Assembly: GCA_964458565.1 (NCBI GenBank)
Contig: CAYWJO010000029.1
Location: forward strand, 9,641-43,166
From: an uncultured archaeon
GTDB taxonomy: Archaea; Asgardarchaeota; Thorarchaeia; Thorarchaeales; Thorarchaeaceae
Direction of reading: 5' to 3'
Length of the DNA stretch: 33,526 nucleotides
Position numbers and translations under genes: made by a program. Below the pieces are notes generated by a model. The model was given only the letters and a program-made list of their open reading frames with translations. It did not search any database and was not told the DNA's origin. Positions 779 to 19,167 of the stretch are shown one piece after another; the stretch's first letter is position 1, and each line of letters starts with the position of its first letter.

Positions 779-3700
779 ATGAAAATGAAAAAAGGAGTCT
801 ATCTTCTACTTGTCATATTACCCATGATCATGGGTGGTTTAGTCGCACCAATGCTATTTCAAGAAGATGTGAATGGCACTGGCGATACAAGGAAAGTGGT
901 GCTAGAAACAGGGGAGGAAATCGAGCTCGCCCCAGACGAAGTTCTATATACGTACCGTCTCTCAGATGCACCTACAGCGATAAGCGGAGTAGGTGATCCT
1001 CTCTTAGGCTCGGAATACGGTGTGAGAACAGACTCATTCTCGGCAGAACGAATGAACTACGACTCGGCAACCCAAAACACTGATACAGTCAATCTCTCAG
1101 TCCCCCTCGGCGATGGATGGGAAGGATATCGTATCGATGGTAATGTTACAAGTATAACAGAGAACAGAACATGGGTTGAAAACTCAGACTTCGATGTAAA
1201 CGCAAATTGGACTTATTATACACATGATGAACCCTCATCTTTTGGACCCTCATATACAAATAGCATCAACTCTCAATGGCTCGCGACTGGCGATGCTTCC
1301 GGTGGTGGATGTGCTCTATTCGATCTTGAAACAGGTTATTATTATGATGCAGGAGGAGGTCTCTACGGTTACTGGTATGATGTGGGCGATAAAGCGTATG
1401 CAGTTCAAAACCTGACAATACCAAGAGGCGAAGTGACATCATTGGGATTGTCTGTTGACTACTGGGCTGATATCAATTGGGGAATCCTCACAGGCTTCTT
1501 TGAGGTCTTCGTCTCAATCGGAGACCCTGACAATGGTGGCACATATCTTTGGCAAAAAGCATTCGATGCTATGGGGACAGGCAATTCAGCAAATTGGCTG
1601 TCCTCGGGTTATGTTGAAGTTGAACCAGGACTTGTAACCTTGCCTGATGTTAATCTTTGGTTAGGACTAAGAACAACAGCTTTAGAGTGGTGGAGACCAG
1701 ATGTGCAACCACGAGCCCGTATGGATAATTTGGTCATTTACGTAACCGCAAAAGCTACTCCTGAAGACGTGAATCTCCAAATGAACGGTGTAAATGTACA
1801 GAACGTTTTGGATGGAGGAACACCATTGTTTGGGCTTGGTACAGTTTCATTTACGCCATCCACTCCTTGGAGGAATGATTTTGCGCTTGCTAATTTCTCT
1901 TGGACTCCGACACCAAATCCACCTGATCCGGACTTAGATATTAACATCGATATTGATGCAGATCTAACAGCATATGCAAGAAGGTATAATGTAGATACAA
2001 TTAGTGACACAGAGTTCTATACAACAGGTGAGAATTATTATATTGAGAACTCAACGGATGTGAATTGGGACACCAATTTCTATGTCGCTATTCCAACCGG
2101 ATATGACAGTGAATATTCCTTCAATATTTCAATCCCGTATAACCGCGATATCTATCATGTTGGTGCACCTCAAAGTCGTACGACGAATCTCCTGACTGGA
2201 TGGAATTTAGGAGACCCTGGAGATGAAGCCGTCAATGTTTCGGCATATGCCACCGGTGCAGGAGATTTGAATGGCTTTTGGTTTTTGAAAGGCACCTCGC
2301 CAAATATGATTACGAACATAGAGGTATGGGACGAGGGCTCAAGCTTATGGACTCGAACAATGAATTTCAGAGCGAATGATATAACACGTTTCGATGCGAC
2401 TCTTCCTGCAGATTACGAAAGTGATGTTGTTTACTTCGATATTTATGATTCGAATGGTCAACTCTGGACTTCACTATTAGCTAGTGTAGACGCAACAGGT
2501 CATGCAACAACAGGTTATGTGACACTTGATGCCTTCAATTCCTCAGTTGGTAGTTGGGAAGTTCACGCTTATGTAAATGATGAAGTTTCAAATGGAACTG
2601 TACACAATGTCGGATATTTCAGCAGAGGGTTTAGTATAACACACAGTACAAACATGGCAATAAAATATCCATTAGGTTCTGAAAGCAGTTGGACGGTGAA
2701 TCTGACTTATGGAGAACTCTTCCTTTTGCAAGTACGAGTTAATGACAGTGATAACGGAGAATTGCTAGCTGGGGGTACAATGACTTATGATTGGTCAGGA
2801 GGAAGTGGTTCAGTCAATGACATGGGAACAGGAGAATATAGTGTTACACTTGATACTGGTACACTCCCCTCAAATGGGCACTATATTATTGATCTCACAT
2901 GGGACAGATCCTACTTTGATACGTTAGCAAGACAATTCCATGTAAATGTCATGTTTACAACCAATCTTCTGTCTTCTGATGCGCCAGGTGTAGATGTGCC
3001 ACTTGGATATGATGCAGTAATGGATCTCAGGTTTGAAGATCAAGTAAAAAATCCAATTCCAGGAGCAATCATTGTAAGTAATTGGACTTACGATGACTAT
3101 TCAGTCACTCCGGTTATCGGTAAACCCGGTCATTATACACTTCTTATTGAAACTCAAAACGTACCTATTGGAAATTATCCGATAAGAATCACAGCTACCA
3201 AAGATTTCTATGAACAAAGAACAATCATCCTATCAGTTCAAGTCAGAGAACTTCATACATCAGCAATACCTTCAACAAGTCAGCTCTCTTTACCAGTAGG
3301 ATACTCAACTTCTTTTACCATCACATATACTGATACAGATCATTCAATTCCAATATCTGGATTCGCTAGCTCAATCAGCTGCAATTGGTCTGATATTCAT
3401 CAGGCAGGGGATCAAAATTATACTGTAGTCGAAACAGTGACTCCAGGATTATATGAAGTCACGTTGTTCTCAAAGGATCTTGATATTCTTCAGATCTATG
3501 ATGTTGAATTTCATGTTGACAAATATGGAGCACAAAATCAAACATTCATTGTGACGGTAGAACTTAGGACTCATTTAACTTCATTTTTCCTGGTTGACCC
3601 AGTCAGTCCAACACCTTACACGGGAAATATTGAGGTCCTTGTGTCGTATTTTGATGTAGATACAGCTACAGGAATTGAAAATGGTTCTTTGGTAGGTTAT

Positions 3701-6700
3701 AATGTATTAATAACATTGGAGAGTCCATCTTTACCAGGAATAATCTATACAGTGGTTAATGGCACCAATGCTGGTGAATATCTTATCTTGATTCCTGCTG
3801 AACAGTGGGGCACCATAGGGCCAAAGGTTCTTATTGTATACGCAGATTGGATTGGCCCAACCGTGAAATATTCCGATGAAGTATTATCAACAAGTGTTAA
3901 TATTATTGGAACTCCAACAGATATTTTCTTAGGAGAGAGTCCATCAATCACACAATATGGTGAAAATATATCATTCACAGTAATCTACTATGATGTTGCT
4001 GGTGATACAGGTGTTGTGAATTCAACTGGACCTTTTGCGGGTAATGTGTTGTTTTACATTGAAATTCTTACTACAGGTCAATCTCTAACTCCAGCGGATA
4101 TTTCAATGACAGAAATAGATCCGGTCAGTAGGCCAGGTGAATATCAAATCGAATTCGATACATCACTCTTGAGTGGAATTATCGGTTGTGAGCTAAGAAT
4201 CTGGTTCAATTGGACCGCTGGACAACTTCCGCTATATGAGAATCAAACACTGTTGGTTACTGTGTTTACGACTTATCGTCAGACAACCGTAAGCTGGAGC
4301 CCACTTCCAGTTACACCATATGACGAACTTGTCAACATGTCACTCAATTACAGAGATGTAAGCACAGCAAGTATAATTCTTAATTCACCAAGCTTGGATA
4401 TCAGTATTCAAGAAGCAATTACATACACCCTTTACTATGATGGTGATATAACCGGTGTATTCAAACTTGAAATTGATACGTCCTCCTGGACACCAGGTAC
4501 TCATGTTTTCCATATCGATGTTGTATGGACAGGCAATCCATTCTATCAGAATAGAACCAGTATCGCAATTCCGATTACAGTCCGTATGCGCTACACTGAG
4601 CTTTCCCATAGTTCATACGCTCCTGTTCAATTTGATAACAGCATTACAATCAGATTCACCTATCTAGATCTTGATGATTATTCATCCACCAATATGGATG
4701 GTGGAACATTTACTTTGGATGCAGCTCTTAGTTCATTCTATTCCGTAGATGACAATGGAGATGGAACATATGATATCACATTGAACATTCTTGAAGGTGC
4801 TTTTCCAAGTACAGGGATATACATCATCAATGCTTCAATATTATATGGAGGGACACCTTGGCGATACGCTGAGGATGCGACTGACTTCTTCTACCTAACC
4901 GTAACTCAAAGAAGAACGCAATTGACCAGTGATTTACCAGATCCTGCGCCTTATCTAACGCAAGCTCTCATTACCGTATACTACTCTGATGATAATAATG
5001 ATACTGGCATTACGAATGCAAATGTTTACGCTTCTTGTGCCACTGCTATTCAGGAATTAGAGCTCGGAATTAATTACCAAGTGCAATACATCTCAAATGG
5101 CGAATATCACATTTTAATAAACACTACCGCCTTGGGTACATTTGGCTCTTATTCTATTGTAGTAACAGCTAATTACACCGGTGCACCATTTTACCTTCAA
5201 AGAATTAGAACAATCGTAATTGAGGTATCAAGACGTCCTACATCTCTCACTGTATCAAAATCACCACTAAACACTCCCTTTGCCCAAAACGTGACTTTTG
5301 AGATTACAATTGAAGACACACTTGATTCTTCTGGAATCGATCTCGATAAATCAAAGCTGATTGTGATGTACAGTGGTTCAATCCTTGTATTAAATTCTGA
5401 ATACTCATTATTGGGTTCCAATGGGGTGTATACAATCTCTATTAATTCAACCCTACTGACTTCTGTCCTTGTTTCAGGATTATCATTACAAGTTAGTCTA
5501 TTCTGGGGAGATGTTGAACCCTTCTATGCAAATGATACCACATCAACCCAAGTGACTGTGGTATCAAGATTCACTCAGGTTGAAGTCCTCTCAACTCCAG
5601 GTGCGTTTATATTCTCAAACGCCACTGCACTCTTTCGATACAGTGATTACTTAACAACAAACCCCATAAGTGGCGCAGAGGTGGATTTAGCTTGCCTCAA
5701 CACGACATCCTTTGATTATTGGGTATATGATATGCTTGATGGAAGATATCAAGTCCTTGTGGATACATCAACCCTCGCCACACTTGGAAAATACTATTTC
5801 ACGGCAAACTTCACGTGGGTGAATCAAACAGGGCTCAATATTCCATACTATCAAAATATAACACTGATTTCCTTCTCACTCACAATCAATCCTGTATCAA
5901 CAGCCCTGAATTTTGAATTAATTTCAACTACGGTATTTCTTGGAGATACGATTTACGCTAATGTTACCTTCATCAATATTCTAACAGGAAAGGGTATTGC
6001 TGGAAGTATAATTATGACAGATTGGGTTGAGCGATACGGAACCAGCGCAACATGGACGTTTGTCAGTGATGGTATATACAATCTTACTATTAGTACATCG
6101 TCACTTGATGCACAACTCTATTCCTTTGAGATAAATGCTACAGCAGGATTCCATCAAAACAGAACAATCACAGCGGATGTTCTCATTTCATCGCTCCCAA
6201 TTAATATTGAAGTTTCTACTTGGCCAGAAACTCCTGTTTGGGGAGATATCTTAGTGATACAGGCGAATGTTACAGATACATTCAAGGGCTTACCACTGAT
6301 TGGTGCACAAGTAAACCTCACGATCAGTGGCACATTATACACAATGATAGAAGTTGACGATGGACTGTATAATGCAACAATACCAGCAGAGGAGTATGAT
6401 GCTGGAGAGTATTCCATCACAATTATAGCTTCCAAGCTTAACCATGAAACTCGACAACGTACTTTTCAAATCCGTTACCTTAAGCTCGATCCAATTCTTA
6501 TTGCTTCACTTGACGAACCATTAGCTGTCAGTGGTCAATCGGTAGTTCTTAGAGCAGATTATCTTCTAGACTCAGATTCTTCACCAATCACGGTTGGTCA
6601 ATTGACTTTCAGTTGGCAAGGAAAGTCAGGAATTCTAAATTGGGATTCTGTTGACGAGCAGTGGATAGGCTCTGTCAATGTTGCTGATGTGCAAATTGGT

Positions 6701-8635
6701 ACATATCAAATCCTAGTTCAAGCGTCCTCGACTAATTACAAGAGCGCTAGTTATCAGGTCACCCTAGAAGTGAGAGAAGCGAATACTCAATTGCGAGCTC
6801 TTAATGATCAAAACATCATTGTTGCAGTTTCAGGTGATGATGTTGAAATCACAGTCTACTTCAATAATACGGACCTTAACAGTCCAATCACGAATGCAAC
6901 AGTCTTCTATGATATCACTGATGCAATCAATGGCTCTCTGTTAGACATTGGTGGAGGATATTATGCTGCAAATATTTCAACGACTTCACTTGAAATTCTT
7001 GATTGGGTACTAACTGTGTCTGCTATCAGACCAGGATTTTCATTTGCATCTTTACAGTTTGAAATTAGTATCTCCAAAATACCAACTGAGGTTGTTGTCA
7101 TTGGTGATGCACTCATAATAGCATATTACGGAGAGAATGTTACATATTACTTTGAGTTTAATGATGCACACAATGGAATAGGTATTGAAAATGCCACTCC
7201 GACATTCACACTCGAAACGGAAACAGGATTCCTAGATGATTTGGGTGATGGTGAGTATTCTCTAACACTAAACACATCTGTTGTGGCTTCTTCTATCACA
7301 CAAAGAAAGGTATACATCACATTCATCAAAGGCACACAATATCGGATATCTTATGTACAAGTCGGGTTAATTGTTGAAGGAATTAGTACTGAGATAATCG
7401 GTGAAGAGGAAGTTGATGTACCGATAGGATTCGACTACACTCAGATGTTTTCATTTAGAGATACAATACATGACATATTACTAGGAGATGCAAATGCAAC
7501 TGCAAGATGGGAATTTGGCTGGATAACAATAACCAGTCACAATAATGGGTCCTATAGCTTTGGTCCTGCTGATACTGGATTGGAGCGACTTGATGTACGT
7601 TCTGAGCCTTATGAAATTACAATTCGAATATTCAAGGCGAATTACAGTGTATCAGAATTGAAATTATACCTCACAATAAGACAAAGACATACACAATTGA
7701 TTGTAGTAGAACCCAATTATCCGGTTTATGCAGGTACGCCCTTCGAAATTCGTCTTACTTACGTTGATACAGATTCAAATATCGGAATATTAGATGCCAT
7801 AAATACAACTGAAACATCGGGTATACTTGAATGGACGGCGTATTCAAATGACCTCCAAAATGGTACGTATATCTTTGGTTTCGTAACTCCTTCAGATGGG
7901 CTTTTTGAACTCACAATTGGCCTTTCAAAGACAGACTATGAAACCTCGTTCATAATCATTACAGTCTTTTCCACAGTGACTCCAGAACAACAGGCAATAG
8001 CTCAGACTTTCCAATATCTTGGAATTGCTGTCATTCTTGGGTCAATGTTAGCTGCTGCTTGGTTTAGACACTTCTCAATTCCACCACTTCTAAGAAAGAC
8101 CCGAAGAATGGTTTCTGCATTACGAGGTGGTACAGTACCATCACCTGCTAACGTAAGAAGCCGTCGAGCAATGATATTAGATGTTATGAATGATGATTTG
8201 AAACCATTGCATATTAGCAAGACATTTGATGATATTTCCTCATCAACCGTGGATGTATCAGTTCTAGATGTTGATCAGCTTCTAGGAGAGTTGCAACAAG
8301 TTGTAGGACTTACTGAGGATGACATAGTCGTTTTACGTAGAGATTTAGACAAAATGCGTCCTAGTGATCGCGCTGGTTTTCTAGGTGAAGTCCTCAAACA
8401 GGAACGCTCCAGAAGAGCTCGCGAGATAGCTGAGGCAAAACTTGCCGAGGATGAAGGACCAGATATCTCGATTGAGAGGAAGCTTTCTGATGAAGAGATT
8501 GAAGACATACGCAATCGACTTCTGAAGATGGGTATAGAACCAGACGAAGTTGAGATAATGGTGGAACAGGCTAAGAACCTCTCAAAAGCTGAGATAGAAG
8601 CATTACTCGATCAGATAGGAGGTGGCGAAGAATGA
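779..8635 (+). CDS. Giant type I membrane surface glycoprotein A (signal peptide, CBM/lectin-like head, 17 Ig/cadherin-like repeats, TM, ~190-aa cytoplasmic tail)
   Basis: 2618-aa ORF. N-terminus MKMKK plus a hydrophobic helix; beta-rich repeats with the pattern 'R.T.L...P.G...I...Y.D.D...I.GA...G.G.Y...IDT..L..G.Y.I...'; dozens of N-x-S/T sequons; TM FQYLGIAVILGSMLAAAWF at about 8009-8065; charged helical tail. Confidence 0.92.
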   Translation: MKMKKGVYLLLVILPMIMGGLVAPMLFQEDVNGTGDTRKVVLETGEEIELAPDEVLYTYRLSDAPTAISGVGDPLLGSEYGVRTDSFSAERMNYDSATQNTDTVNLSVPLGDGWEGYRIDGNVTSITENRTWVENSDFDVNANWTYYTHDEPSSFGPSYTNSINSQWLATGDASGGGCALFDLETGYYYDAGGGLYGYWYDVGDKAYAVQNLTIPRGEVTSLGLSVDYWADINWGILTGFFEVFVSIGDPDNGGTYLWQKAFDAMGTGNSANWLSSGYVEVEPGLVTLPDVNLWLGLRTTALEWWRPDVQPRARMDNLVIYVTAKATPEDVNLQMNGVNVQNVLDGGTPLFGLGTVSFTPSTPWRNDFALANFSWTPTPNPPDPDLDINIDIDADLTAYARRYNVDTISDTEFYTTGENYYIENSTDVNWDTNFYVAIPTGYDSEYSFNISIPYNRDIYHVGAPQSRTTNLLTGWNLGDPGDEAVNVSAYATGAGDLNGFWFLKGTSPNMITNIEVWDEGSSLWTRTMNFRANDITRFDATLPADYESDVVYFDIYDSNGQLWTSLLASVDATGHATTGYVTLDAFNSSVGSWEVHAYVNDEVSNGTVHNVGYFSRGFSITHSTNMAIKYPLGSESSWTVNLTYGELFLLQVRVNDSDNGELLAGGTMTYDWSGGSGSVNDMGTGEYSVTLDTGTLPSNGHYIIDLTWDRSYFDTLARQFHVNVMFTTNLLSSDAPGVDVPLGYDAVMDLRFEDQVKNPIPGAIIVSNWTYDDYSVTPVIGKPGHYTLLIETQNVPIGNYPIRITATKDFYEQRTIILSVQVRELHTSAIPSTSQLSLPVGYSTSFTITYTDTDHSIPISGFASSISCNWSDIHQAGDQNYTVVETVTPGLYEVTLFSKDLDILQIYDVEFHVDKYGAQNQTFIVTVELRTHLTSFFLVDPVSPTPYTGNIEVLVSYFDVDTATGIENGSLVGYNVLITLESPSLPGIIYTVVNGTNAGEYLILIPAEQWGTIGPKVLIVYADWIGPTVKYSDEVLSTSVNIIGTPTDIFLGESPSITQYGENISFTVIYYDVAGDTGVVNSTGPFAGNVLFYIEILTTGQSLTPADISMTEIDPVSRPGEYQIEFDTSLLSGIIGCELRIWFNWTAGQLPLYENQTLLVTVFTTYRQTTVSWSPLPVTPYDELVNMSLNYRDVSTASIILNSPSLDISIQEAITYTLYYDGDITGVFKLEIDTSSWTPGTHVFHIDVVWTGNPFYQNRTSIAIPITVRMRYTELSHSSYAPVQFDNSITIRFTYLDLDDYSSTNMDGGTFTLDAALSSFYSVDDNGDGTYDITLNILEGAFPSTGIYIINASILYGGTPWRYAEDATDFFYLTVTQRRTQLTSDLPDPAPYLTQALITVYYSDDNNDTGITNANVYASCATAIQELELGINYQVQYISNGEYHILINTTALGTFGSYSIVVTANYTGAPFYLQRIRTIVIEVSRRPTSLTVSKSPLNTPFAQNVTFEITIEDTLDSSGIDLDKSKLIVMYSGSILVLNSEYSLLGSNGVYTISINSTLLTSVLVSGLSLQVSLFWGDVEPFYANDTTSTQVTVVSRFTQVEVLSTPGAFIFSNATALFRYSDYLTTNPISGAEVDLACLNTTSFDYWVYDMLDGRYQVLVDTSTLATLGKYYFTANFTWVNQTGLNIPYYQNITLISFSLTINPVSTALNFELISTTVFLGDTIYANVTFINILTGKGIAGSIIMTDWVERYGTSATWTFVSDGIYNLTISTSSLDAQLYSFEINATAGFHQNRTITADVLISSLPINIEVSTWPETPVWGDILVIQANVTDTFKGLPLIGAQVNLTISGTLYTMIEVDDGLYNATIPAEEYDAGEYSITIIASKLNHETRQRTFQIRYLKLDPILIASLDEPLAVSGQSVVLRADYLLDSDSSPITVGQLTFSWQGKSGILNWDSVDEQWIGSVNVADVQIGTYQILVQASSTNYKSASYQVTLEVREANTQLRALNDQNIIVAVSGDDVEITVYFNNTDLNSPITNATVFYDITDAINGSLLDIGGGYYAANISTTSLEILDWVLTVSAIRPGFSFASLQFEISISKIPTEVVVIGDALIIAYYGENVTYYFEFNDAHNGIGIENATPTFTLETETGFLDDLGDGEYSLTLNTSVVASSITQRKVYITFIKGTQYRISYVQVGLIVEGISTEIIGEEEVDVPIGFDYTQMFSFRDTIHDILLGDANATARWEFGWITITSHNNGSYSFGPADTGLERLDVRSEPYEITIRIFKANYSVSELKLYLTIRQRHTQLIVVEPNYPVYAGTPFEIRLTYVDTDSNIGILDAINTTETSGILEWTAYSNDLQNGTYIFGFVTPSDGLFELTIGLSKTDYETSFIIITVFSTVTPEQQAIAQTFQYLGIAVILGSMLAAAWFRHFSIPPLLRKTRRMVSALRGGTVPSPANVRSRRAMILDVMNDDLKPLHISKTFDDISSSTVDVSVLDVDQLLGELQQVVGLTEDDIVVLRRDLDKMRPSDRAGFLGEVLKQERSRRAREIAEAKLAEDEGPDISIERKLSDEEIEDIRNRLLKMGIEPDEVEIMVEQAKNLSKAEIEALLDQIGGGEE
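2642..7975 (+). repeat. Protein-level tandem array of 17 Ig-like repeats (~95-125 aa each) in glycoprotein A
   Basis: Repeat starts read by eye: HST, TTN, LHT, HLT, TPT, RQT, RYT, RRT, RPT, RFT, VST, LPI, LDP, ANT, IPT, IST, RHT. The repeats are diverged at the DNA level. Confidence 0.8.
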
Positions 8636-11600
8636 AACACACCAAGAAACAAGTATTCATCGGATTGCTGATAATGGTCTTCGCATTCCAGATATTAGCA
8701 TTAGCGAATCCACTAGGTGATCCACTCCGTTCGATGGACAACAACTCATCAGCAAGAGACAACTCTACATTCGTTGATATTGGGAACGGAGATATTATTG
8801 AGGTAGGACCAGATGAACAACTACATAGCTTTATTCTCACTGAGAATGGATGGGTAGAATACACGGGAACCTCATCTCACCTATCCGGATCTGAATATGG
8901 TAACAGTACCACCACCACCTCAGGAATAGAGATGAATTATCTTCCAACCAATGTAACGAGCGATTCGTATGTAGACATATCAACTGGTTCTGACTGGGAA
9001 GGATACGAGACTTTAGTTACATTCAATGATGTGACCGAGAATAGGACTTGGATTCAAAATCCAACATTCGATCAGGACGCATCTAGTTGGACAGTTACAA
9101 CTTCAAACACAGGATCTTATAGCACACCTGTTTCTGCTTGGAATTCAACTGGACATGGAACAGGCGATGGATGTATTGATCTTGAGATAAACTCGAATAG
9201 TGGGGGAGCTCCATATTATTATGATGCTGGAGACCGTGCTTATGCAACTCAAACAGCCTCAATAAGCCGAGGAACTGTTGTTTGGGCAGGATTCAGTGCT
9301 GACTATTGGGCAGATACTAGAGATGATGTTCATTATGGAATGACAGGTACTTTTGCGCTTTACGTGAATATAGAAGGTAACTCTATCTGGACGGTTGTAT
9401 TCAGTGATGTTGGACAAGAGGAAACTTGGTATAATTCAGGACTGGTAACTGTACCAACGACTACATTTAATCTTCCCACCGATACAAATGTGAATGTGGA
9501 ATTTGGTCTTGAAAGCCGTGCATCAGTAGGATACGCACCAAATATTTTGCCTGCTGCAAAGTACGATAACTTCATTCTCTATATGAAGACACAAACAACT
9601 CCAAGTAGTATCAATCTCGAGATGGATGGCAACTCCGTGAGTGATTATTCTGGGTATGGTTCAGGATATGTGAATGAGATACCTGCTTCACCATGGACCA
9701 AGAATCCAATCCGACTTAATTTCACTTGGGCACCAACTCCAATCAATCCCATCCCCAACTTAACAATCACAGTAGAGTTTGACGTTACTGTGAATATGTA
9801 TACTCGGAAGTATGATACAAGAACAGTGTCAGAAATCGATGCAACTGCGTATGGAGAAAGATTTGTAGTTCAGAATGGAACTGCAGTTAATTATACAACG
9901 TATTTCTACGCTAACATTCCACCTGGTTACGTGAATCGGTATTTCTATAATATCACGATCCCTGATAACCGTGATGTCACCTTTATTGCTAAACCACTTG
10001 CACCTGGAACGAATCTTACAAGCGGATGGAGTGGAGGTCAATTTGGTGATGGTTATGTTAACGTTTCAGCATATGAGGTTGCTACGGCTGCTGGGCGTTA
10101 TGGATACTGGAGAGTCCTTAGTCAAGGAACCAACATGATAACCGATCTTGAAATTTTTGATCCCTCCACATCAACATGGAAACATTCAGTTGATTTGAGA
10201 GCAGGAAACACATCGCAGATTAGAGTCTATGCAGGCGTAGAATTTGAGGATTCAATTGTAAATATTACTATACTTGACCCGCAGGGTAATTCATGGTTCA
10301 GTGCTAATGCTACCGTTGATGCGACAGGTTATGCAACATCAACACAATTCACCGTTAATGGAGATAATGCTGACGCTGGTAGTTGGATGGTCCTAGCATT
10401 TACAAATGATGTTGGCTCAAATGGGGTTTGGCGGTCTACTGGATTCTTCCAGAGACCATTTACTGTTTCTCACTCATCAGAACTATTGATGCATTATCCG
10501 ACTGATGCAATTGGAACCTGGGTCACCAATGTTACATACGGAGACCTCTTACTCATTATTGTCAAGGCTAATGATACAGATAGTGCGATCTTAGTTGCTG
10601 GGGGCGTATTAGATTACTCATGGGCTGCTGGGTCTGGTCAATTCGATGATTCAGGTAACGGACAGTATACGAAAGTAGTTGATACTTCAACACTGAGTGG
10701 TAAGGGTCAATATGCAATGACACTTACATGGACGCATTCATCGTACGATGTTGCAATAGCAACTCTTACAATCAACGTGAATTATGCGTCAACATTGACC
10801 TCACCAGATTACCCAGGAATATCAGGACCTATTGGATCTGAACAAGATTTCACTGTGAAACACGCAAATGTGAATGGCACGAGTATTCTTGGAGGAATTG
10901 TTACATGTAATTGGTCACAACCTTATACTGTAACTCCTCTTGGACAGGGTTCCTATAGAATCGAGCTTGACACAACCTCACTCCAAATTGGAGTGTACGT
11001 AGTAGAGGTATATGCGAAAGCTTCCTTTGTAGAAGGAACATCGATGATAATGTATATCGAGGTTCGAGAGATCTATAATACGGTCACCTATTCAGCTAAT
11101 CAACTCTCTATTCCTGTAGGAGAATCCGATTCGTTTGTTATCACATGGACTGATACTGATACAGGAAATCCAATACAAGTTGGAGAGAGTTATATAACAT
11201 GTAATTGGACATCGTTCCATTCATCAGGCGAACAGAATTACACAATTGCAGAAGAAACACCTGGTAAATATCGAGTGACAATCTTCACAGAATCAGATGA
11301 TCCACTGACTGTACCTGATGAATATTTCTTAGTAGTGTTTATGGTAAATCGTTCAAACTACCAAAATCATACATTTTCTATTGGAGTACAGATAAGAAGT
11401 CACAACACTTTGTTTATCCTTGATGCTCCCATCGAACAAACGGAGTATGGGACTAACATCGTTGTAAGAGTATTCTATAAGGATACTGATCTCAATTTGG
11501 GAATTAAGAATGATACATATTATGTGCGGATTGTTGTAACGACACCAGAGATAATACTGTGGTACACATCAATTGATTCGATTCTTGGTGATGGGCACTT

Positions 11601-14600
11601 CAACATTACAATCCCAAGTAGTCAATGGGGAGCTATAGGTTGGAGGAATCTCACAATAACAGCGAGTTGGATAGGACCTGTCCAGAAGTATTTCGAGGGA
11701 ACAATAGACACACAGGTTAGGGTTTTAGGAACTGAAACCGATTTGTATCTTGAATTAGCACCATCTGCTACTTACTACCAGAATAACTTCACATTTAGTG
11801 CTGTATACTGGGATGCTATCAACTCAACAAGAATCTCAAGCCCTGGTAACGTGTATATTGTTATCGAACCCATTACAACAGGACATCCAGTCACTCAAGA
11901 TGACTTCATGATTTCAGAATCCAGTACTATACCTGGTACATATGAGTTTGGAATAGATAGCTCGCAATTCTTGAGGTTAGGCACCTTCCGATTTAGGCTG
12001 TCATTACTGTGGTCCAAAGGAGTGTCCCCACTTTATGAAAATCAGACTATGACATTCACACTCATCGTATTAGCTAGACCAACATACATTGATTACAATC
12101 CGGTTCAAACTACGCCATTTAATGAAACTGCTGAATTATCATTCACTTTTGTTGACGCATTTTCTATAACAAAGATTGTGAACTCATCAAGTATTGAGAT
12201 TTCCATAAATGAAGGAACAGTATCGTATACGATTAGCTATAATTCATTAGAGCGTCTTTTCTCAATCTACATCGATACTGAATCTTTAGGAGGAGTTGGA
12301 TCATTTATTCTACACCTCAATTTGACCTATTCTGGAGAACCATTCTATACATCACACCAGAACGATGCCTTTACGGTCACAGTTGAGCTAAGAAATACTC
12401 AGCTCTCTCATCTGTCGTTTGCACCAGCTCAATATGGAAACAATGTCACAATAGAATTTGTATTCACAGATCTTGTATCACAATCTACAAGCGGAATGAC
12501 AGGATCTCTTAGTCTTAATGTCTGGTTGGTAGGATGGTATACAGTCCAACCACAGGGAAATGGTCATTATCTTGTAGAAATAGATACCACGGGATTTGCT
12601 AGCGATGGGTTGTACGTAATAACAGCAACAATTACTTACACAGGAAGCAACTTTGCAGATGACGCAAATGAGGACTTTGGTTTCACAGTATTAAAACGGG
12701 TTACTCAACTTGGATATGATAGCCCAGATCCTACCCCATATCAGTCAAACATAACGTTCATAGTATCATATACAGACGACACAACCGGGGCTGGTATTTC
12801 AGGAGCAAATATTTACGTTAGCTGTGACACATCCGATGATATCTTAGTCAATGGTTCAAATTACTGGTACGAGAATCCATTTGCAGGACAATATATCATA
12901 TACGTTGATTCAGTTGCTTTAGGTGCTCCAAACACCTACTCATTAAATGTCACAGTGACGTGGACAGATACTCCATTCTACGAAACAGTGTCTAGATTTA
13001 TATCATCGCGAGTGACTGAGAGAACCACACAAATTTTGATCACCAAGACACCAGGAGAAACGCCTTACCTTGAGAATGTTACTTTCAGATTCAGATACAA
13101 TGATTTCCTAACTGGTGAGAGTATTAGTATTCAGAAACAACATATCTCTCTAGCATTTGGACCAACATTGATTGAAATTGCCTCAGTTAATTTTAGTTTT
13201 ACATACCAGGATCCATACTACGAAATCAGTTTTAGCTCGGCAGTACTAAGTGAAACATCACTCGGTTCATATACTCTTGAATTAACAATAGATCGTAGTG
13301 GCTCAATACCATATTATGCAATAAGAAGCAAAACAACATCAGCAACTGTCATTGAGAGACCGACCCAGATATTCTTCCCACTCGTGCAGGATACACCATT
13401 TGGTGATACAATAATCATAGATCTCGATTACGTGGATTATCTGACTGGTGGTGGTATTGACGACGCAGATATTCAAGTGACATCACTAAATCTCACAACT
13501 CCTTCGTTCACATTAGTTAGATTAACGGAGGGTTCGTACAAACTCCAAATTCCGAGTAATCAATTTGGTCGATCAGGTATTGTATACTTTGATTTCACAA
13601 TATCCATTTCAGGAGCACCCTTCTATGCAAGCAGATCAGCAACTGATGTAATCGCTACCATACGATTGATTCAGGTTTCACTAACGGCTGATACTCCAGC
13701 ACCCGGTTCTATTCCAGTTGGTGCCCCAATGGTAATTAATCTCACACTCATTGATTATGACCATGATACAACTATAGATAATGCTACAATTTTCACAGAT
13801 TGGGATATTCTTCAGAATAGGAACTATGTTGTGGATGTACTAGGCAATGGCAAGTATAGAGTTACGTTAAACATGACCGGACTTCTGGCACAAGAGTATA
13901 CATTGCACGCCTGGGTTGTGAAGACCAATTATGAACTAGAAATAATCACTTTTAGTGTACAACCAGGTGTTGCCACAATTGAGATACTTCTTGACAGAAC
14001 AACATACTATGTGGATTGGGGACAAGATATCTTTATTGAAGTACAGATTCTTGATCCCTTCTATGGTTCTCCTGTGCCAGGTATGAATGTAACACTCACA
14101 TGGGGTGCAATTGAATACATATTTGCTGATATTGGAGAGGGAATCTATCAATTATTTGTAAGCAGTAGAAACCAAGATGCAGGATTCTATACTCCCACGA
14201 TATCAGCTTCATATGAATTCTATCAGACTCGACAAAAGACATTCAGTTTAGTAGTCACTCGAGCCACAGGTCAGATAATTCCAGAATTATCAACAGTGTA
14301 CGTAGTAGTTGGGACTCAGACTGAATTCACAGTCTACCTGAATGATACGATTTCAAATCTCCCAATTGATGGCGCAACAGTCGAGATGGAGTGGAAAGAG
14401 CACATCATTTCAATGACATATAATGGAACACCAGGATTCTATAATACAACATTAGATGTTGGAGGATTAGCTATTGGAATCTATGATCTGAGCTTCACCG
14501 GAATAGCCACAAATCATGATTTTCTAAAAGTGACTGTTGACGTTTCAGTTACTCCGGTACCAACATCGATATCATTACTCAGTGGCGTAACATCGCCTAG

Positions 14601-16392
14601 ACCGATTTTTGGAGACAGTTTCGATGTCACTATTGGTTACAATGATACATATTATCTTGGATCAATTAGTGGTGCTACAGTTAGCTATCTATTAGGTCCA
14701 ATCGGTGGCACTTTCACTGAAAACCCAGATGGAAGTTACTCAGCTTCAATAGATACAAGTCAGATTGGAGCTCGGGTTCTAAGGTTACAAATCAGGGCTA
14801 CTAAAACAAACTATAGCACCGGTAGTCTAACCCTATTCGTTAATATCCGACCAATTCCCACTGAAGTAACTGTTGATGATAGCTTAAAAGATGGGTACTT
14901 TGGTGATAATGTTACGTTCACATTCCACCTTCGTGATACACACAATGATGAAGATATCATAAACGCATCACTGTTTGTGGAGTGGGACGGAGGGACATAT
15001 GCATTCAGAGAGATCGGAGGAGGATTCTATGAGGTTGAAATAAACCTGAATCAGACAATACCTCGATTATATGAATTATCCGTCATATTCACTCGACTAA
15101 ACTATGCTAGTACATCTAATCGGCCTGGTGTTGTTCTGAGAGCAACTCCTGGAGAGATAGTGGGTCCATCAAGTGTTTCAATACCATTTAACGATTCTAT
15201 CACCATTTCATTCATGGTAAATAATACACTCAGAAATAGTTTAATCTTAGATGTTTCAGGAGCTGCCTATTGGCAGACAGGTACTGTTTCGTTGCTTGAA
15301 CCACAAGAAGATGGAACATTCACTCTCAATATTCCAGATGACGTGCCAATGGGGACGTACAGCATGGATATTGTCTTTGAGAGTGTCTTGTATACCATCT
15401 CACCATTAACTATCGAAGTAGTAGTTAGACCAATAGAAACAGCTTTGTATACGGATGAGCAGCAGATTTTGACTCAACGTGGAGCAGCAATCATATTGAC
15501 AGTAAGTTTTATAGATTTGGATCATGATATTGGTATATCTGGAATTCTACCAAATGTCACCTATGACGACACTCTGGTCATTTACTATCCAGGATATACT
15601 AGTGAGCCATTTGATAATGGTACCTATCAGCTTTATTTCACAGTCATCGGATCAAACCAATTCACAATCAAGATAGGATTTGAGAAGGAAGATTACTTTA
15701 CACCAGAACCATTGATTTTCACCATTAATTCAGACATTACTGAAGAACAGAGATTACAGCAAGTAATCGGTTATCTTGGCGGATTCAGCTTCTTTGTTAT
15801 TGCATTAGCACTGGCTTTGTATGTTAGAATTTGGAGTATTCCTTGGATTATACGTGCTCTGAATAGACTAATCAGTATGCTCAGTAAAGGTAGAGTTCCC
15901 AAACCAGTTGATGTAAGAACTAGAACAGAATTGGTCAGTGAATTTGTAAATGATGAATTAAAGCCTGTTGGAATTCAGAAAGAAATTGAAGATATCACTG
16001 GGTATTCTATCAGAATTGATGTGCCTGAGGTTGATGCATTACTGGAAAGATTAGCAGATATCACCAACCTTGGACCTGATGAACTTGCAGCATTCCGAGC
16101 AGACCTCTCAAGGATGAAAGCTAGTGAAAGACCTGGTTTCCTCAGAGAAGTTATCGAACAAGAAGAAGCTAGACGTGCAGATGCATTAGCTGAAAGAGAT
16201 GGAGTGAGGAAAACTGATAGAGATGCTGAACTCCTCGGAGCACAACCCGAGGAGCTTGAGAGTATCCGCAAGAAACTCCGACAGAAAGGAATGGCAGATT
16301 CTGAAATTGAAATTATAATTCAACAAGCTGAGAATCTTTCGAAGGCTGATCTCGAGGCACTACTAGACAGTCTTGGAATTCGACTCGATTAA
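8632..16392 (+). CDS. Giant type I membrane surface glycoprotein B, full-length paralogue of A
   Basis: 2586-aa ORF. Its ATG overlaps the TGA of A (ATGA) and is preceded by GGAGGTG. Collinear motifs shared with A include GSEYG, WEGY, TENRTW, DYWAD, NF.W.PTP, VNVSAY, VDATG and CNW. TM VIGYLGGFSFFVIALALALYV at about 15763-15825; homologous tail. Confidence 0.92.
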   Translation: MKHTKKQVFIGLLIMVFAFQILALANPLGDPLRSMDNNSSARDNSTFVDIGNGDIIEVGPDEQLHSFILTENGWVEYTGTSSHLSGSEYGNSTTTTSGIEMNYLPTNVTSDSYVDISTGSDWEGYETLVTFNDVTENRTWIQNPTFDQDASSWTVTTSNTGSYSTPVSAWNSTGHGTGDGCIDLEINSNSGGAPYYYDAGDRAYATQTASISRGTVVWAGFSADYWADTRDDVHYGMTGTFALYVNIEGNSIWTVVFSDVGQEETWYNSGLVTVPTTTFNLPTDTNVNVEFGLESRASVGYAPNILPAAKYDNFILYMKTQTTPSSINLEMDGNSVSDYSGYGSGYVNEIPASPWTKNPIRLNFTWAPTPINPIPNLTITVEFDVTVNMYTRKYDTRTVSEIDATAYGERFVVQNGTAVNYTTYFYANIPPGYVNRYFYNITIPDNRDVTFIAKPLAPGTNLTSGWSGGQFGDGYVNVSAYEVATAAGRYGYWRVLSQGTNMITDLEIFDPSTSTWKHSVDLRAGNTSQIRVYAGVEFEDSIVNITILDPQGNSWFSANATVDATGYATSTQFTVNGDNADAGSWMVLAFTNDVGSNGVWRSTGFFQRPFTVSHSSELLMHYPTDAIGTWVTNVTYGDLLLIIVKANDTDSAILVAGGVLDYSWAAGSGQFDDSGNGQYTKVVDTSTLSGKGQYAMTLTWTHSSYDVAIATLTINVNYASTLTSPDYPGISGPIGSEQDFTVKHANVNGTSILGGIVTCNWSQPYTVTPLGQGSYRIELDTTSLQIGVYVVEVYAKASFVEGTSMIMYIEVREIYNTVTYSANQLSIPVGESDSFVITWTDTDTGNPIQVGESYITCNWTSFHSSGEQNYTIAEETPGKYRVTIFTESDDPLTVPDEYFLVVFMVNRSNYQNHTFSIGVQIRSHNTLFILDAPIEQTEYGTNIVVRVFYKDTDLNLGIKNDTYYVRIVVTTPEIILWYTSIDSILGDGHFNITIPSSQWGAIGWRNLTITASWIGPVQKYFEGTIDTQVRVLGTETDLYLELAPSATYYQNNFTFSAVYWDAINSTRISSPGNVYIVIEPITTGHPVTQDDFMISESSTIPGTYEFGIDSSQFLRLGTFRFRLSLLWSKGVSPLYENQTMTFTLIVLARPTYIDYNPVQTTPFNETAELSFTFVDAFSITKIVNSSSIEISINEGTVSYTISYNSLERLFSIYIDTESLGGVGSFILHLNLTYSGEPFYTSHQNDAFTVTVELRNTQLSHLSFAPAQYGNNVTIEFVFTDLVSQSTSGMTGSLSLNVWLVGWYTVQPQGNGHYLVEIDTTGFASDGLYVITATITYTGSNFADDANEDFGFTVLKRVTQLGYDSPDPTPYQSNITFIVSYTDDTTGAGISGANIYVSCDTSDDILVNGSNYWYENPFAGQYIIYVDSVALGAPNTYSLNVTVTWTDTPFYETVSRFISSRVTERTTQILITKTPGETPYLENVTFRFRYNDFLTGESISIQKQHISLAFGPTLIEIASVNFSFTYQDPYYEISFSSAVLSETSLGSYTLELTIDRSGSIPYYAIRSKTTSATVIERPTQIFFPLVQDTPFGDTIIIDLDYVDYLTGGGIDDADIQVTSLNLTTPSFTLVRLTEGSYKLQIPSNQFGRSGIVYFDFTISISGAPFYASRSATDVIATIRLIQVSLTADTPAPGSIPVGAPMVINLTLIDYDHDTTIDNATIFTDWDILQNRNYVVDVLGNGKYRVTLNMTGLLAQEYTLHAWVVKTNYELEIITFSVQPGVATIEILLDRTTYYVDWGQDIFIEVQILDPFYGSPVPGMNVTLTWGAIEYIFADIGEGIYQLFVSSRNQDAGFYTPTISASYEFYQTRQKTFSLVVTRATGQIIPELSTVYVVVGTQTEFTVYLNDTISNLPIDGATVEMEWKEHIISMTYNGTPGFYNTTLDVGGLAIGIYDLSFTGIATNHDFLKVTVDVSVTPVPTSISLLSGVTSPRPIFGDSFDVTIGYNDTYYLGSISGATVSYLLGPIGGTFTENPDGSYSASIDTSQIGARVLRLQIRATKTNYSTGSLTLFVNIRPIPTEVTVDDSLKDGYFGDNVTFTFHLRDTHNDEDIINASLFVEWDGGTYAFREIGGGFYEVEINLNQTIPRLYELSVIFTRLNYASTSNRPGVVLRATPGEIVGPSSVSIPFNDSITISFMVNNTLRNSLILDVSGAAYWQTGTVSLLEPQEDGTFTLNIPDDVPMGTYSMDIVFESVLYTISPLTIEVVVRPIETALYTDEQQILTQRGAAIILTVSFIDLDHDIGISGILPNVTYDDTLVIYYPGYTSEPFDNGTYQLYFTVIGSNQFTIKIGFEKEDYFTPEPLIFTINSDITEEQRLQQVIGYLGGFSFFVIALALALYVRIWSIPWIIRALNRLISMLSKGRVPKPVDVRTRTELVSEFVNDELKPVGIQKEIEDITGYSIRIDVPEVDALLERLADITNLGPDELAAFRADLSRMKASERPGFLREVIEQEEARRADALAERDGVRKTDRDAELLGAQPEELESIRKKLRQKGMADSEIEIIIQQAENLSKADLEALLDSLGIRLD
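10471..15735 (+). repeat. Protein-level tandem array of 17 Ig-like repeats in glycoprotein B
   Basis: Repeat starts: HSS, YAS, IYN, HNT, TET, RPT, RNT, RVT, RTT, RPT, IQV, GVA, ATG, VPT, IPT, TPG, IET. Each unit resembles the same-numbered unit of A. Confidence 0.8.
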
Positions 16393-16442: not shown

Positions 16443-17468
16443 TCAATCAGGTACTGTATTATCCGATGATTTTCGTCTTCTGCGTGTCACTATGGTTAAT
16501 GCACCAAATCCAACAATGACGCTGAACCAAAGAGTCACAAATCTAATCAATAGAGTTGCGGTGCTTGCGATGGTAAGAGTTATTCCAAGAATTGTAGTCA
16601 TCACTGCAACTGCAAATGTTTCATATCCTCCGAGGCCTCCTGGAAGAAATATGAGAATAGCTCCAACCGACGATGCCGCAGCATGAATGAATGTAACTTG
16701 CGATAGTAGTATCAACGAGGCCATGGTTAGTGAGGGTAGTCCAACCCCAGTCAATATACTCAACAATAGCCAGAGTTCAAGACATTCCATAAACCAACCA
16801 GGAATGCTGATTGCAGTTCCAACAAGCATTGGTTTTGGAGAGAGCGTTTTAAGCATTGTATCCTCTACAAGGTTCATGCTATTCTGAAAGCGCTTCAATG
16901 GACCCAAGCCTGTGAGCTTGTCTAAGACTTTCCTGTAGAATTTCTCATTACTGAGTACAAGTGCCCCAACAAAGAGCATACCTCCAACAATGAGTAAGAG
17001 AATCAGTTCGTTTCCAACAGATATTCCAATTATGAATGAGAAGAGAGCGAGTAAAACCATCGCAAGTAGATCAGTGACTCGTTCTGATATAACGACAGGA
17101 GCAGTCTTTGCAATTGGAGTTCCATCTATCTCATTTATAAAATACCCTTTGATTACCTCACCAACTTTTCCAGGAGTGACTGTAAGTGTGAAACCAGCCA
17201 AGAAAACACTGAAGCTATCTCTGTGTGATAAGTATACATCGATTCGATGGAGGTAATATTGCCATTTGATATACCTTATTGCATAATTGAGAAAAGATAA
17301 TGCCATCATCGTTGGTAGAATCCACCAAAGCTCAAGAGATGCTAGTAATCCAACAACCTGGTCGATTTGACCAATCCAAGCAATGATTAGATAGATAATC
17401 ACGCCAAGCAGAACAAAGACAACAACCTTTGTTGGGCTGATGAACGTGGAGTCTGCCTTGTCATTCAC
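16443..17468 (-). CDS. UPF0104 / lysylphosphatidylglycerol-synthase-TM-like polytopic membrane protein (putative flippase or lipid-linked sugar transferase)
   Basis: Motifs R..KW..YL, TPGKVGE..K, SER..DLL, PGGLG.YE and IRF.TLWF, with about 8 hydrophobic helices. The likely start is GTG at 17468, overlapping the PHP stop (GTGA), rather than 17549. Confidence 0.85.
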   Translation of the reverse strand: MNDKADSTFISPTKVVVFVLLGVIIYLIIAWIGQIDQVVGLLASLELWWILPTMMALSFLNYAIRYIKWQYYLHRIDVYLSHRDSFSVFLAGFTLTVTPGKVGEVIKGYFINEIDGTPIAKTAPVVISERVTDLLAMVLLALFSFIIGISVGNELILLLIVGGMLFVGALVLSNEKFYRKVLDKLTGLGPLKRFQNSMNLVEDTMLKTLSPKPMLVGTAISIPGWFMECLELWLLLSILTGVGLPSLTMASLILLSQVTFIHAAASSVGAILIFLPGGLGGYETFAVAVMTTILGITLTIASTATLLIRFVTLWFSVIVGFGALTIVTRRRRKSSDNTVPD

Positions 17469-18154
17469 ACTTTGGGTATCGGCCACTTTGAATACCTCCG
17501 AATTCTTTGCCAAATCGAACTGGGAATATGAACCCAGAAGAAGGAACAATGACCACTGATTTGTGTGTGTCCTTTCCTTAGCTCCTCGTAAACATCTTCA
17601 GGAGTCTCAATACCCTGAAGCCATGTCTTTGCATGACCAATTTCTAAGAATGAATGTGCGTCGCTACCAGCAGTCATGGGTTTCCTCAGTCGCTCCGCAA
17701 GCCTCTGGGCTTGAGTATTGAATAAGTTGATTATGTTTCTTGAATTGATTCCTTCAATAAGATCAACATGTTTCTTTATGATTACCTCAGAGAGTCCTTT
17801 CCTAATTGCAGTGTGTTTACGTGTAATATCATAAGGATGAGGAAGAATTACGAATCCATTCTGGTCATGAATATCCTCTGCAATTTCAACAAATGATCGA
17901 TTCTCAATGGGTTCACTAATGAACAAACCTATAATTTCTCCCGAGTCAGTCGATTTGAATTCACAGGCGGGAATTAGAAATCTTTCATCTCGGATAATTG
18001 TCTTACGTAAAGAAGGTCTCCAATGCTCAGTCAATGCGATTCCTTTTAGTCCAACTCGCTTCATCTGTTTAAAGAGTGTTCTTGGATTATTCAGCCCATC
18101 CTTAGAGTGAATGGTATGAAAGTGGAAATCGAAAGCCGATAATTCTTGACTCAT
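17465..18154 (-). CDS. PHP-domain metal-dependent phosphoesterase
   Basis: PHP metal ligand motifs DFHFHTIHSKDG, TEH, PHP, EGIN and GSDAH. Confidence 0.9.
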   Translation of the reverse strand: MSQELSAFDFHFHTIHSKDGLNNPRTLFKQMKRVGLKGIALTEHWRPSLRKTIIRDERFLIPACEFKSTDSGEIIGLFISEPIENRSFVEIAEDIHDQNGFVILPHPYDITRKHTAIRKGLSEVIIKKHVDLIEGINSRNIINLFNTQAQRLAERLRKPMTAGSDAHSFLEIGHAKTWLQGIETPEDVYEELRKGHTQISGHCSFFWVHIPSSIWQRIRRYSKWPIPKV

Positions 18155-18166
18155 TCATTCACCGCG

Positions 18167-19153
18167 CTACGGGATTATTATTGATTGAAACAGTGTTTCA
18201 AGTGTTGTGATTATTGGGTCCCAGAAAAAGAGAGTCACAAACAATGCCAACACAAATAGAATTCCCCCAATCAATATACCTTTATCTTTAATGGCAAGAT
18301 GAGGTTTTCTACCAACTGGCGAACCTATTTGAATCAAGTAGATGTAACGCATCAAAATTCCGGCAGCTATAGGAACAGTCAGCATTACAGGCTGTGTAGC
18401 CATTCTATCTCCAAATTGATTGTAGCAATATAGTGCATAGAAAAGAACAACCCAAGTTCCTGACATCGTTATACCTTGATTGAGTATTTCATCAGTATAC
18501 TGCTTGAAAACCGGTTTGTGAAGAGGAGCTTCATCGCCTAATAACTGGAGCTCATTCTTTCGTTTTCCAAATGCTAGTACAAGTGCAACGAAGAAGATAC
18601 CGATTATTAACCATGAGGTGAATGGAATAGGATTACCAAGCGCATCTCTGATCAGGAATGTTCCAGCAACAGCTCGGATAATGAATCCTACTGCAATAAT
18701 ACACACATCAACGACTGCCCAATTTCTGAGTTTCCAACTATAGAGTTGTGAATTTAATATATAGAATAGAATAGATAGAAGAAAAAAGCCACTACCTAGA
18801 ATGAATAACGAGATGATTAGACTAATAGCATAGAGAGCAATAGCTAATATAAGAGCAAATTCTTTCGAAACGCGACCTGCTGGGAGAGGTCGTTCCATCT
18901 TCTCAGGGTGTGCAGCATCTTTTTCGATATCAAAGAGGTCATTTAGGATATAACCAGCTGATGAAACAGCACAGAAAACCAGAAAACCCAAAATGAGAGG
19001 CGGATATTTTGTCAAGTCGAAAACGGCTGGTATTTGTGTCCATGGCCATTCAAGTGGTTGAGGAACCTCAACAAACACAATAGCAACAAAAACGAGGAGA
19101 TTCTTGTACCATTGATGAGGCCTCATTAAACGAAGATAATCTTTCAATGCCAT
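18167..19153 (-). CDS. ubiA: UbiA-superfamily protein, decaprenyl-phosphate phosphoribosyltransferase (Rv3806c/DPPR synthase) type
   Basis: RPHQWYKNLLVF, YILNDLFDIEKDAAHPEK..RPL.AG, DV..IA.GF..RA.AG and LAFGKRKNEL are characteristic of the phosphoribosyltransferase branch of UbiA. Multiple TM helices. Confidence 0.85.
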   Translation of the reverse strand: MALKDYLRLMRPHQWYKNLLVFVAIVFVEVPQPLEWPWTQIPAVFDLTKYPPLILGFLVFCAVSSAGYILNDLFDIEKDAAHPEKMERPLPAGRVSKEFALILAIALYAISLIISLFILGSGFFLLSILFYILNSQLYSWKLRNWAVVDVCIIAVGFIIRAVAGTFLIRDALGNPIPFTSWLIIGIFFVALVLAFGKRKNELQLLGDEAPLHKPVFKQYTDEILNQGITMSGTWVVLFYALYCYNQFGDRMATQPVMLTVPIAAGILMRYIYLIQIGSPVGRKPHLAIKDKGILIGGILFVLALFVTLFFWDPIITTLETLFQSIIIP

Positions 19154-19167
19154 TGCTATAATTCCTA

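Follow-up and report, generated by a model that had tools for sequence, protein, structure and literature searches.

A conserved, predicted all-helical cytoplasmic tail of three modules on giant surface proteins of Thorarchaeota: a candidate docking domain

The stretch of DNA analysed here (the window) comprises 33,526 nucleotides of contig CAYWJO010000029.1 (positions 9,641 to 43,166, assembly GCA_964458565.1) from an uncultured archaeon of the family Thorarchaeaceae, the genome of which (3.7 Mb in 93 contigs) is 93% complete. Two genes on the plus strand, A (779..8635; 2,618 residues) and its paralogue B (8632..16392; 2,586 residues), were identified from their open reading frames (ORFs) and translations, and hydropathy and sequon counts mark A as a giant type-I surface glycoprotein. 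Each protein contains an N-terminal hydrophobic, signal-like segment (signal peptide), an ectodomain of ~2,400 residues, a single transmembrane (TM) helix and a tail of 188-189 residues, which is the subject of this report. A and B are full-length paralogues, with 32% identity across ~2,450 columns of their ectodomains, for which Pfam gives just weak beta-sandwich matches. The two tails are 40% identical (E 6e-45) and align end to end with one gap. In a preliminary description of the window, the tails were placed at 8066-8635 in A and 15826-16392 in B. The first range corresponds to residues 2430-2618 and the stop codon of A, immediately after the TM helix, and the second to the counterpart in B, while every block of shared residues quoted at the time falls on invariant columns of the alignment of the two tails.

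The TM helix core of A (8015..8065, plus strand; residues 2413-2429, YLGIAVILGSMLAAAWF) lies directly before the tail. It was missed by a hydropathy scan at a cut-off of 1.8, the last 19-residue window with a mean above 1.6 being 2411-2429, and AlphaFold2 (AF2) predicts a helix over this region (model residues 2-31, i.e., 2403-2432) with a predicted local distance difference test score (pLDDT) of 95-98. By its topology the tail is predicted to be cytoplasmic, as had been proposed: the membrane-proximal segment that follows the TM helix is basic, with a charge of ~+6, and the sequons (N-x-S/T) are almost all on the other side of the membrane, with 57 outside versus 1 in the tail in both A and B.

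The tail of A is composed of three parts and a linker, all on the plus strand. The basic juxtamembrane motif (JM; 8066..8236, residues 2430-2486, delimited by profile match) reads RHFSIP..LRK.RRM...L.GG.VP.P..VRSRR....MNDDLKP. AF2 predicts two helices within it, at tail residues 7-20 and 33-48, with a pLDDT of 82-97 per 10-residue block and the minimum in the first ten residues. The following module, M1 (8237..8452, residues 2487-2558), was defined by profile match, alignment and AF2, and consists of an extended lead-in and three helices (tail residues 69-81, 84-95 and 99-129). The third of these, which is 31 residues long and charged, bears those polar residues that are best conserved in the tail, and mean column identity reaches 62% in an alignment of 95 M1 sequences. 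The charged helix previously noticed between two motifs of the tail is the continuation of this third helix, and is followed by a flexible linker (8453..8476) predicted with low confidence (12 residues, tail residues 130-141, pLDDT 59), the end of which was set where the profile of the next module begins. This C-terminal module, MC (8477..8632, residues 2567-2618), was delimited by profile match, an alignment of 110 copies and AF2. It forms three short helices (tail residues 142-154, 159-169 and 174-185; pLDDT of 87-93 per block) and follows the pattern LS..E.E..R..L...G.......I..EQAK.L.....E.LL, in which E7, L15, G19, E24, Q31, A32, L35 and L43 are nearly invariant. In B, the profiles place JM at 15826..15996 (residues 2399-2455), M1 at 15997..16185 (residues 2456-2518) and MC at 16234..16389 (residues 2535-2586), also on the plus strand. 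All three profiles match both A and B in the canonical order and position, with E-values of 1e-17 to 1e-27.

The tail is predicted to be folded and all-helical. With alignments of 77 sequences, AF2 returned a mean pLDDT of 90.9 when the TM helix was included and 89.5 when it was omitted, falling below 60 at the linker only, which speaks against the disorder that the preliminary description had named as a concern. The predicted template modelling score (pTM) was 0.50-0.51 for both tail models, a value to be expected of two confidently modelled parts joined by a flexible linker.

A profile built from the two tails was searched against 1.84 billion representative proteins and matched 117 clusters, 102 of them at E<=1e-10, which provides the wider set of carriers that had been proposed as a check. 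Among these clusters, 87 contain complete tails, all C-terminal and behind a TM helix, with a constant order of TM helix, JM (~57 residues), M1 (~63 residues by profile), linker and MC (~50 residues). MC lies 0-6 residues from the C-terminus in all 87, as one copy in 82 tails and as four tandem copies, spaced by ~60 residues, in the other five. The linkers fall into two classes, 12-19 residues for tails of the A/B class versus 49-81 residues, and acidic, for a long class, and the tails of relatives reach ~400 residues. The mean net charge is +5.9 for JM, -5.5 for M1 and -5.3 for MC. One further match, P0100, a bacterial adhesin-like repeat protein of 5,830 residues (E 2e-14, 23 "stretches"), was rejected as a false positive. 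It repeats PLSKAQVEALLNG ~20 times, showing that scores summed over repeats can mimic homology to MC.

In a sample of 400 Asgard genomes, the full-length tail was found in 80 of the 85 genomes of the host family and in the single genome of a sister family, with E-values of ~1e-60 to 1e-103. Genomes contain 1-10 tail matches, and complete carrier ORFs encode ~2,000-6,500 residues. On these searches, the full form of the tail is restricted to one Asgard order, Thorarchaeota. The closest named locus, whose tail is 61% identical, belongs to Candidatus Thorarchaeota archaeon AB_25, and nearly all named homologues are annotated as "hypothetical protein, Candidatus Thorarchaeota archaeon", in agreement with the Asgard affiliation assumed in the preliminary description. 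The JM, M1 and MC profiles can be used to annotate such proteins.

Conservation among orthologues, on which the preliminary description had made its reading depend, is at least as high in the tail as in the ectodomain. In six comparisons, which include four orthologue pairs and the A/B pair, the tail was more conserved than the ectodomain by 7-16 percentage points of identity in five and equal to it in the sixth. A-type and B-type tails constitute separate orthologous groups, with a mean column identity of 68-69% within groups and 40% between them. A-type tails also end in an invariant Gly-Gly. In A, the end of the gene at 8614-8635 reads ata gga ggt ggc gaa gaa tga (I-G-G-G-E-E-stop), so that the GGAGGTG Shine-Dalgarno sequence of B sits within the last codons of A, and the start codon of B overlaps the stop codon of A (ATGA, 8632-8635). 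Hence the invariant Gly-Gly may be kept by the ribosome-binding site of B rather than by protein function.

The host genome contains four tail carriers, organized as two adjacent pairs. The second giant pair is on the minus strand of another contig (G000:C3:96718-106293, 3,192 residues; G000:C3:108051-124847, 5,599 residues), and its tails carry an acidic insert of 50-80 residues between M1 and MC. The same contig encodes, also on the minus strand (G000:C3:149223-149693), an ORF of 157 residues. It lacks an ectodomain but has a JM-like motif (E 4.5e-10) as well as a TM helix and a short, acidic, helical tail, and looks like a free-standing, tail-only mini-protein. A protein of 2,428 residues on contig C17 shows a weak JM-like match followed by an acidic tail of ~250 residues ending LSKKELEALLTSI. 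Two metagenomic proteins are also worth mentioning. P0109 (182 residues) combines what is, by eye, a RodZ-type N-terminus with a TM helix and an MC close to the A-type consensus, and could be either a chimeric gene call or a case in which a membrane protein uses MC on its opposite side. P0113 (185 residues) contains an M1-like module and no TM helix. Together they suggest that soluble carriers of single modules may exist outside the host genome.

Outside the host family, matches to the whole-tail profile are weaker (E 1e-6 to 1e-18). In family f14 they extend from the TM helix through JM to an M1-like module, while in Odin-sized, Loki-type and other genomes the match covers only the TM helix and JM, in proteins of ~400-1,900 residues. 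An alignment of JM from Thor, Odin-like, Loki-like and f14 sequences retains four invariant residues, P6, R10, P25 and R33, within the cross-lineage pattern R-x-x-S-[VI]-P-x-x-[LIV]-R ... G-x-x-P ... R. When longer proteins were searched with the JM profile, 75 matches were obtained, and all the named ones are Asgard, from Thor-, Sif-, Odin- (including Odinarchaeum yellowstonii LCB4), Hod- and Promethearchaeota. These sequences suggest that JM is an older membrane-proximal element of the whole phylum and that the Thorarchaeota giants extended it with M1 and MC. This wider distribution is less certain than the result at the family level, because the distant matches are short, basic and mostly first found together with a TM helix.

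The tail was described as uncharacterised, and this description holds. Pfam and NCBIfam contain no family for the tails of A and B or for 77 whole tails, and a Foldseek search of both tail models against the PDB, one of the checks that had been suggested, gave nothing below E=1. Structural comparison of both models with 48,161 chains using VIA-align gave best Z values of 6.8 for M1 (adenovirus cement proteins) and 5.7-6.1 for MC (MerR-like N-domain and paramyxovirus P X-domains), with the top MC matches as a whole being three-helix bundles at Z 5.6-6.1, all of them below the stated noise for helical folds. Nothing matched the JM region, and the 50 entries listed per model included no UBA, Pex14 or RecX chain. 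In the ESM Atlas, matches by shape did not exceed a TM-score of 0.29, and matches by features gave nothing usable. Profile searches of the PDB with MC and M1 yielded no sequence relative: the best matches were helical proteins designed de novo (helical repeats, cages and TIM barrels), followed by weak and scattered natural proteins (uS15, polycystin-2 and MrdA).

The likeness of MC to Pex14_N, pointed out in the preliminary description, which had also listed RecX for comparison, recurs in the profile matches but is partial and remains below threshold. The 110 MC copies were scanned singly against Pfam at E<=1 and the 25 most-matched families were listed. RecX_HTH1 was matched by 53 copies (best E 1.4e-4), Bap31_Bap29_C by 45, cwf21 by 23, RecX_HTH2 by 21 and Pex14_N by 14 (best E 4.9e-4), all below threshold. 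The MC of A scores 12.1 bits against Pex14_N (PF04695; E 0.16), for a gathering score of 23.2 bits, and 12 bits against RecX, for a gathering score of 26 bits. Of the 40 positions of the RecX profile, the match spans just 17-38. The summed RecX score of one four-copy tail reaches 26.9 bits against the cut-off of 26 bits, but no single stretch passes it, and one relative was automatically named "OraA/RecX" by JGI on the basis of such a partial match. RecX chains were also absent from the PDB profile-search matches at E<=10 (46 and 16 sequences). RecX is a soluble bacterial regulator of RecA. Its repeats (PF21982, RecX_HTH1; PF02631, RecX_HTH2) are, like MC, three-helix units of ~45-50 residues that can occur in tandem, and MC shares with them the helix-turn-helix (HTH) signature EL...L...G.....I..I. 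The tail, however, terminates an archaeal surface protein and is tethered to the membrane. An array of four MC resembling the tandem RecX repeats is found in 5 of the 87 complete tails, while A and B have one copy each. The N-terminal domain of Pex14 is also a small three-helix bundle, which MC matches below the gathering score. Both likenesses are therefore taken as a real yet partial HTH signature in sequence and not as family membership. In view of the strong acidity of M1 and MC, the idea that they bind DNA (HTH, SAP or LEM-like) was discarded.

The tail had also been read as an internal duplication, with two copies of a motif of ~40 residues starting near 8270 and 8498. The two positions are right and both modules are three-helix units of comparable helix lengths (13, 12 and 31 residues in M1; 13, 11 and 12 residues in MC), but their resemblance in sequence is weak. 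BLASTP gave no alignment between the M1 and MC units of A. Alignment of the M1 and MC profiles (95 and 110 sequences, respectively) by hhalign gave a probability of 57-65% (P ~6e-5 to 1e-4) over 21-22 columns, pairing GLTEDDIVVLRRDLDKM(RPSD) with KLSDEEIEDIRNRLLKM(GIEP), i.e., helix 2 of M1 with helix 1 of MC, in a register that lies 18 residues from the one first proposed. In an ungapped scan of all registers, the top offset was that of hhalign, with a score of 20.2 reached by 0.05% of column shuffles. The register first proposed was the second-best diagonal (13.9), which is unusual if chosen beforehand but below the 95th percentile over all registers. These P values are optimistic, because column shuffling destroys helical periodicity. 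Since the two registers differ by one helix and a turn, the shared signal corresponds to a recurring unit made of an L-S/T-x-x-E cap, an amphipathic helix and a turn, and the matches to designed proteins likewise suggest that the common pattern is an "ideal" helix-loop-helix. Both modules also weakly match fusions with the three-helix B4 domain of protein A (Z 4.5-4.6), in aligned ranges that do not show whether the B4 part is what matches. M1 and MC hence belong to the same fold class. They may share an ancestor, although this is unproven and any such duplication would be old and faint; the duplications that are certain in the tail family are the tandem MC copies.

What, then, could such a tail be for? 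A useful point of comparison is PySLP, a solved colossal archaeal S-layer protein of ~290 kDa with a signal peptide, a C-terminal TM anchor and many Ig-like domains, which, like its relatives, has a short, highly basic tail ending in Lys (bioRxiv 10.64898/2026.08.21.746120). A and B resemble PySLP in their signal peptide, giant ectodomain (glycosylated, judging by its sequons) and single C-terminal TM helix, but the Thorarchaeota giants add ~130-350 conserved and folded residues behind the basic segment. At somewhat better than even odds (a probability of about 0.55), the tail is a conserved, folded, all-helical cytoplasmic domain of an undescribed family, made of three modules, which docks the giants to a cytoplasmic partner. 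JM would probably lie on the inner face of the membrane and could form with M1 a fixed membrane-proximal platform, from which MC would extend as a tethered, protein-binding "plug" for the partner. The reach of MC, given by linker length, and its valency, given by copy number, would be tuned among paralogues, and the three parts acting together would tie giant surface rods to that partner.

A docking module had been suggested in the preliminary description, and for a tail that is uncharacterised, intracellular, folded and conserved we infer such a role to be reasonable. A specific role is further favoured by the contrast with a neighbouring surface protein that makes do with a TM helix and "RRRK", and with PySLP and its short basic tail. 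Docking also agrees with the finding that Asgard cells lack an ordered S-layer and bear numerous surface proteins on one membrane (PMC9834061). Several points weigh against docking. No cytoplasmic partner was identified, the host genome encodes no soluble protein bearing M1 or MC, and no conserved adaptor-like gene adjoins either giant pair. The neighbours of the two pairs (a glycosylation-type operon, an HTH regulator, a solute-binding protein, an AAA protein, ThiI and GNAT) include no shared small cytoplasmic candidate. In addition, the nearly invariant residues of MC look like helix-cap and core positions and not like an obvious binding surface, the generic three-helix folds provide no functional lead from structure, and the whole analysis is based on predicted genes of uncultured organisms. 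The tail nevertheless sits on the largest surface proteins of an Asgard order, which makes it a bait for finding a connection between the cell surface and the interior.

The strongest competitor, although still unlikely, is that the tails act on each other: the long M1 helix or MC would pair A with B or cluster many giants side by side beneath the membrane, organizing the coat from within and with no separate partner. Such assembly in cis would fit the arrangement of tail-bearing giants in adjacent pairs, A and B with overlapping stop and start codons and the second pair on C3, as well as the maintenance of A-type and B-type tails as distinct orthologous groups. The charged end helix of M1, 31 residues long, is also of a kind able to form coiled coils. 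However, AF2 places this helix with high confidence within a monomeric bundle, and the strong acidity of both M1 (~-5.5) and MC (~-5.3) disfavours simple self-association. Prediction of a complex between the tails of A and B returned a score of 0.00 and no verdict, and counts neither for nor against pairing.

Alternatively, the tail could be a passive anchor or "stopper", in which JM binds anionic lipids and the folded acidic domains just stop a 280-kDa extracellular rod from slipping out or flag the protein for proper insertion, with no specific partner. JM is strongly basic and directly follows the TM helix, it alone is the part common to Asgard lineages, and the conserved residues of MC are mostly structural-looking, all of which favours an anchor. 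Yet other archaeal giants and the neighbouring surface protein need just a TM helix and a few basic residues. Anchoring also poorly explains purifying selection on 130 more residues, the separate A and B orthogroups, and the fixation of MC at the C-terminus together with its expansion to four copies. This reading is regarded as rather improbable.

A more ambitious version of docking is that JM is a pan-Asgard "handle" and that M1 with one to four MC makes a trans-membrane linker to an actin-based or other cytoplasmic scaffold. An actin of eukaryotic type is encoded in the host genome (419.6 bits against Pfam Actin), and in an Asgard archaeon imaged in detail an actin cytoskeleton lies beneath the membrane that carries the individual surface proteins (PMC9834061). 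The tails of integrin beta and classical cadherins offer a parallel, in that they likewise belong to single-pass proteins with very large ectodomains, begin with a basic membrane-proximal segment followed by conserved docking elements, and are at least as conserved as the ectodomain. Tails of eukaryotic adhesion receptors are short and largely unfolded until bound by partners such as talin, kindlin and catenins. The Thorarchaeota tails, by contrast, are 190-400 residues long and are predicted to be stably helical and acidic, and they have no sequence or fold relationship with those of integrins or cadherins. The linker to a scaffold is a doubtful proposal at present. If true, it would be a prokaryotic, independently evolved counterpart of the outside-in coupling mediated by integrins and cadherins, and would place such coupling in the lineage closest to eukaryotes.

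It is also conceivable, but distinctly improbable, that the giants are receptors and that the tail is their signalling output, e.g., a platform dependent on phosphorylation or clustering. The type-I architecture, in which a folded, conserved tail is joined to a large ectodomain exposed to ligands, would suit a receptor, and the M..S motif of M1 contains an invariant Ser at tail position 100. This residue is located two residues into helix 3 of the AF2 model and may be merely structural. Moreover, Pfam and NCBIfam searches detected no kinase, HAMP, PAS, receiver or other signalling domain, and no signalling genes were found in the neighbourhood of either pair.

Finally, the preliminary description had recognized in the tail the pattern of UBA domains, which contain a conserved Met-Gly-Phe/Tyr loop after helix 1, and had inferred possible binding of ubiquitin, ESCRT-type or cytoskeletal partners. 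MC is predicted by AF2 to be a compact three-helix bundle of ~45-50 residues, against ~40-45 for UBA, and shares with UBA domains a Gly that is conserved in the loop joining the first two helices. Two Snf7/ESCRT-III proteins are also encoded in the host genome. These features could be compatible with M1 and MC being UBA/CUE-type domains that bind ubiquitin or ubiquitylated/ESCRT cargo and link the surface proteins to ESCRT-type sorting. However, this fold class is generic, and the Gly is the only part of the UBA loop that MC keeps: G19 is present in >=90% of copies with variable flanks (consensus "...LxxxGxPxxEI..."), and the MC of A merely happens to read M-G-I at this position. With the 110 MC copies scanned at E<=1, UBA (PF00627) was missing from the 25 Pfam families matched most often. 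It was equally absent from the Pfam matches of A, B and the 77 whole tails, and no UBA chain appeared in the 50 best entries of either structural search. The host genome contains no match to ubiquitin (PF00240) or E2 (PF00179), and ubiquitin was found in 0 of 85 host-family genomes and in 0 of 1 sister-family genome versus 289 of 313 elsewhere in the phylum, being absent from all 87 genomes of the two tail-bearing families, host genome included. With no UBA signal and no ubiquitin across the clade, ubiquitin binding by the tail is very unlikely, the UBA reading is already largely refuted, and a tempting lead is removed for the Thorarchaeota clade. A C-terminal MIM-like helix for the MIT domain of Vps4 was also considered by eye, but the consensus does not fit the MIM1 pattern.

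Other genes of the window flank the A/B pair. Upstream, positions 2-493 are part of gene G000:C29:7839-10133, whose product of 764 residues has no Pfam match and terminates in a Ser/Thr-rich stalk, one TM helix and then "RRRK" alone. It is an ordinary C-terminally anchored surface protein, in contrast to the 189-residue tails. Downstream, minus-strand genes converge on the end of B at 16443-20250 and encode an LPG_synthase_TM-like protein, a PHP phosphoesterase, a UbiA prenyltransferase and a DUF362 protein, a run of membrane and sugar-lipid type genes, beyond which lie genes for a metallophosphoesterase and a SLOG/LDcluster4 protein.

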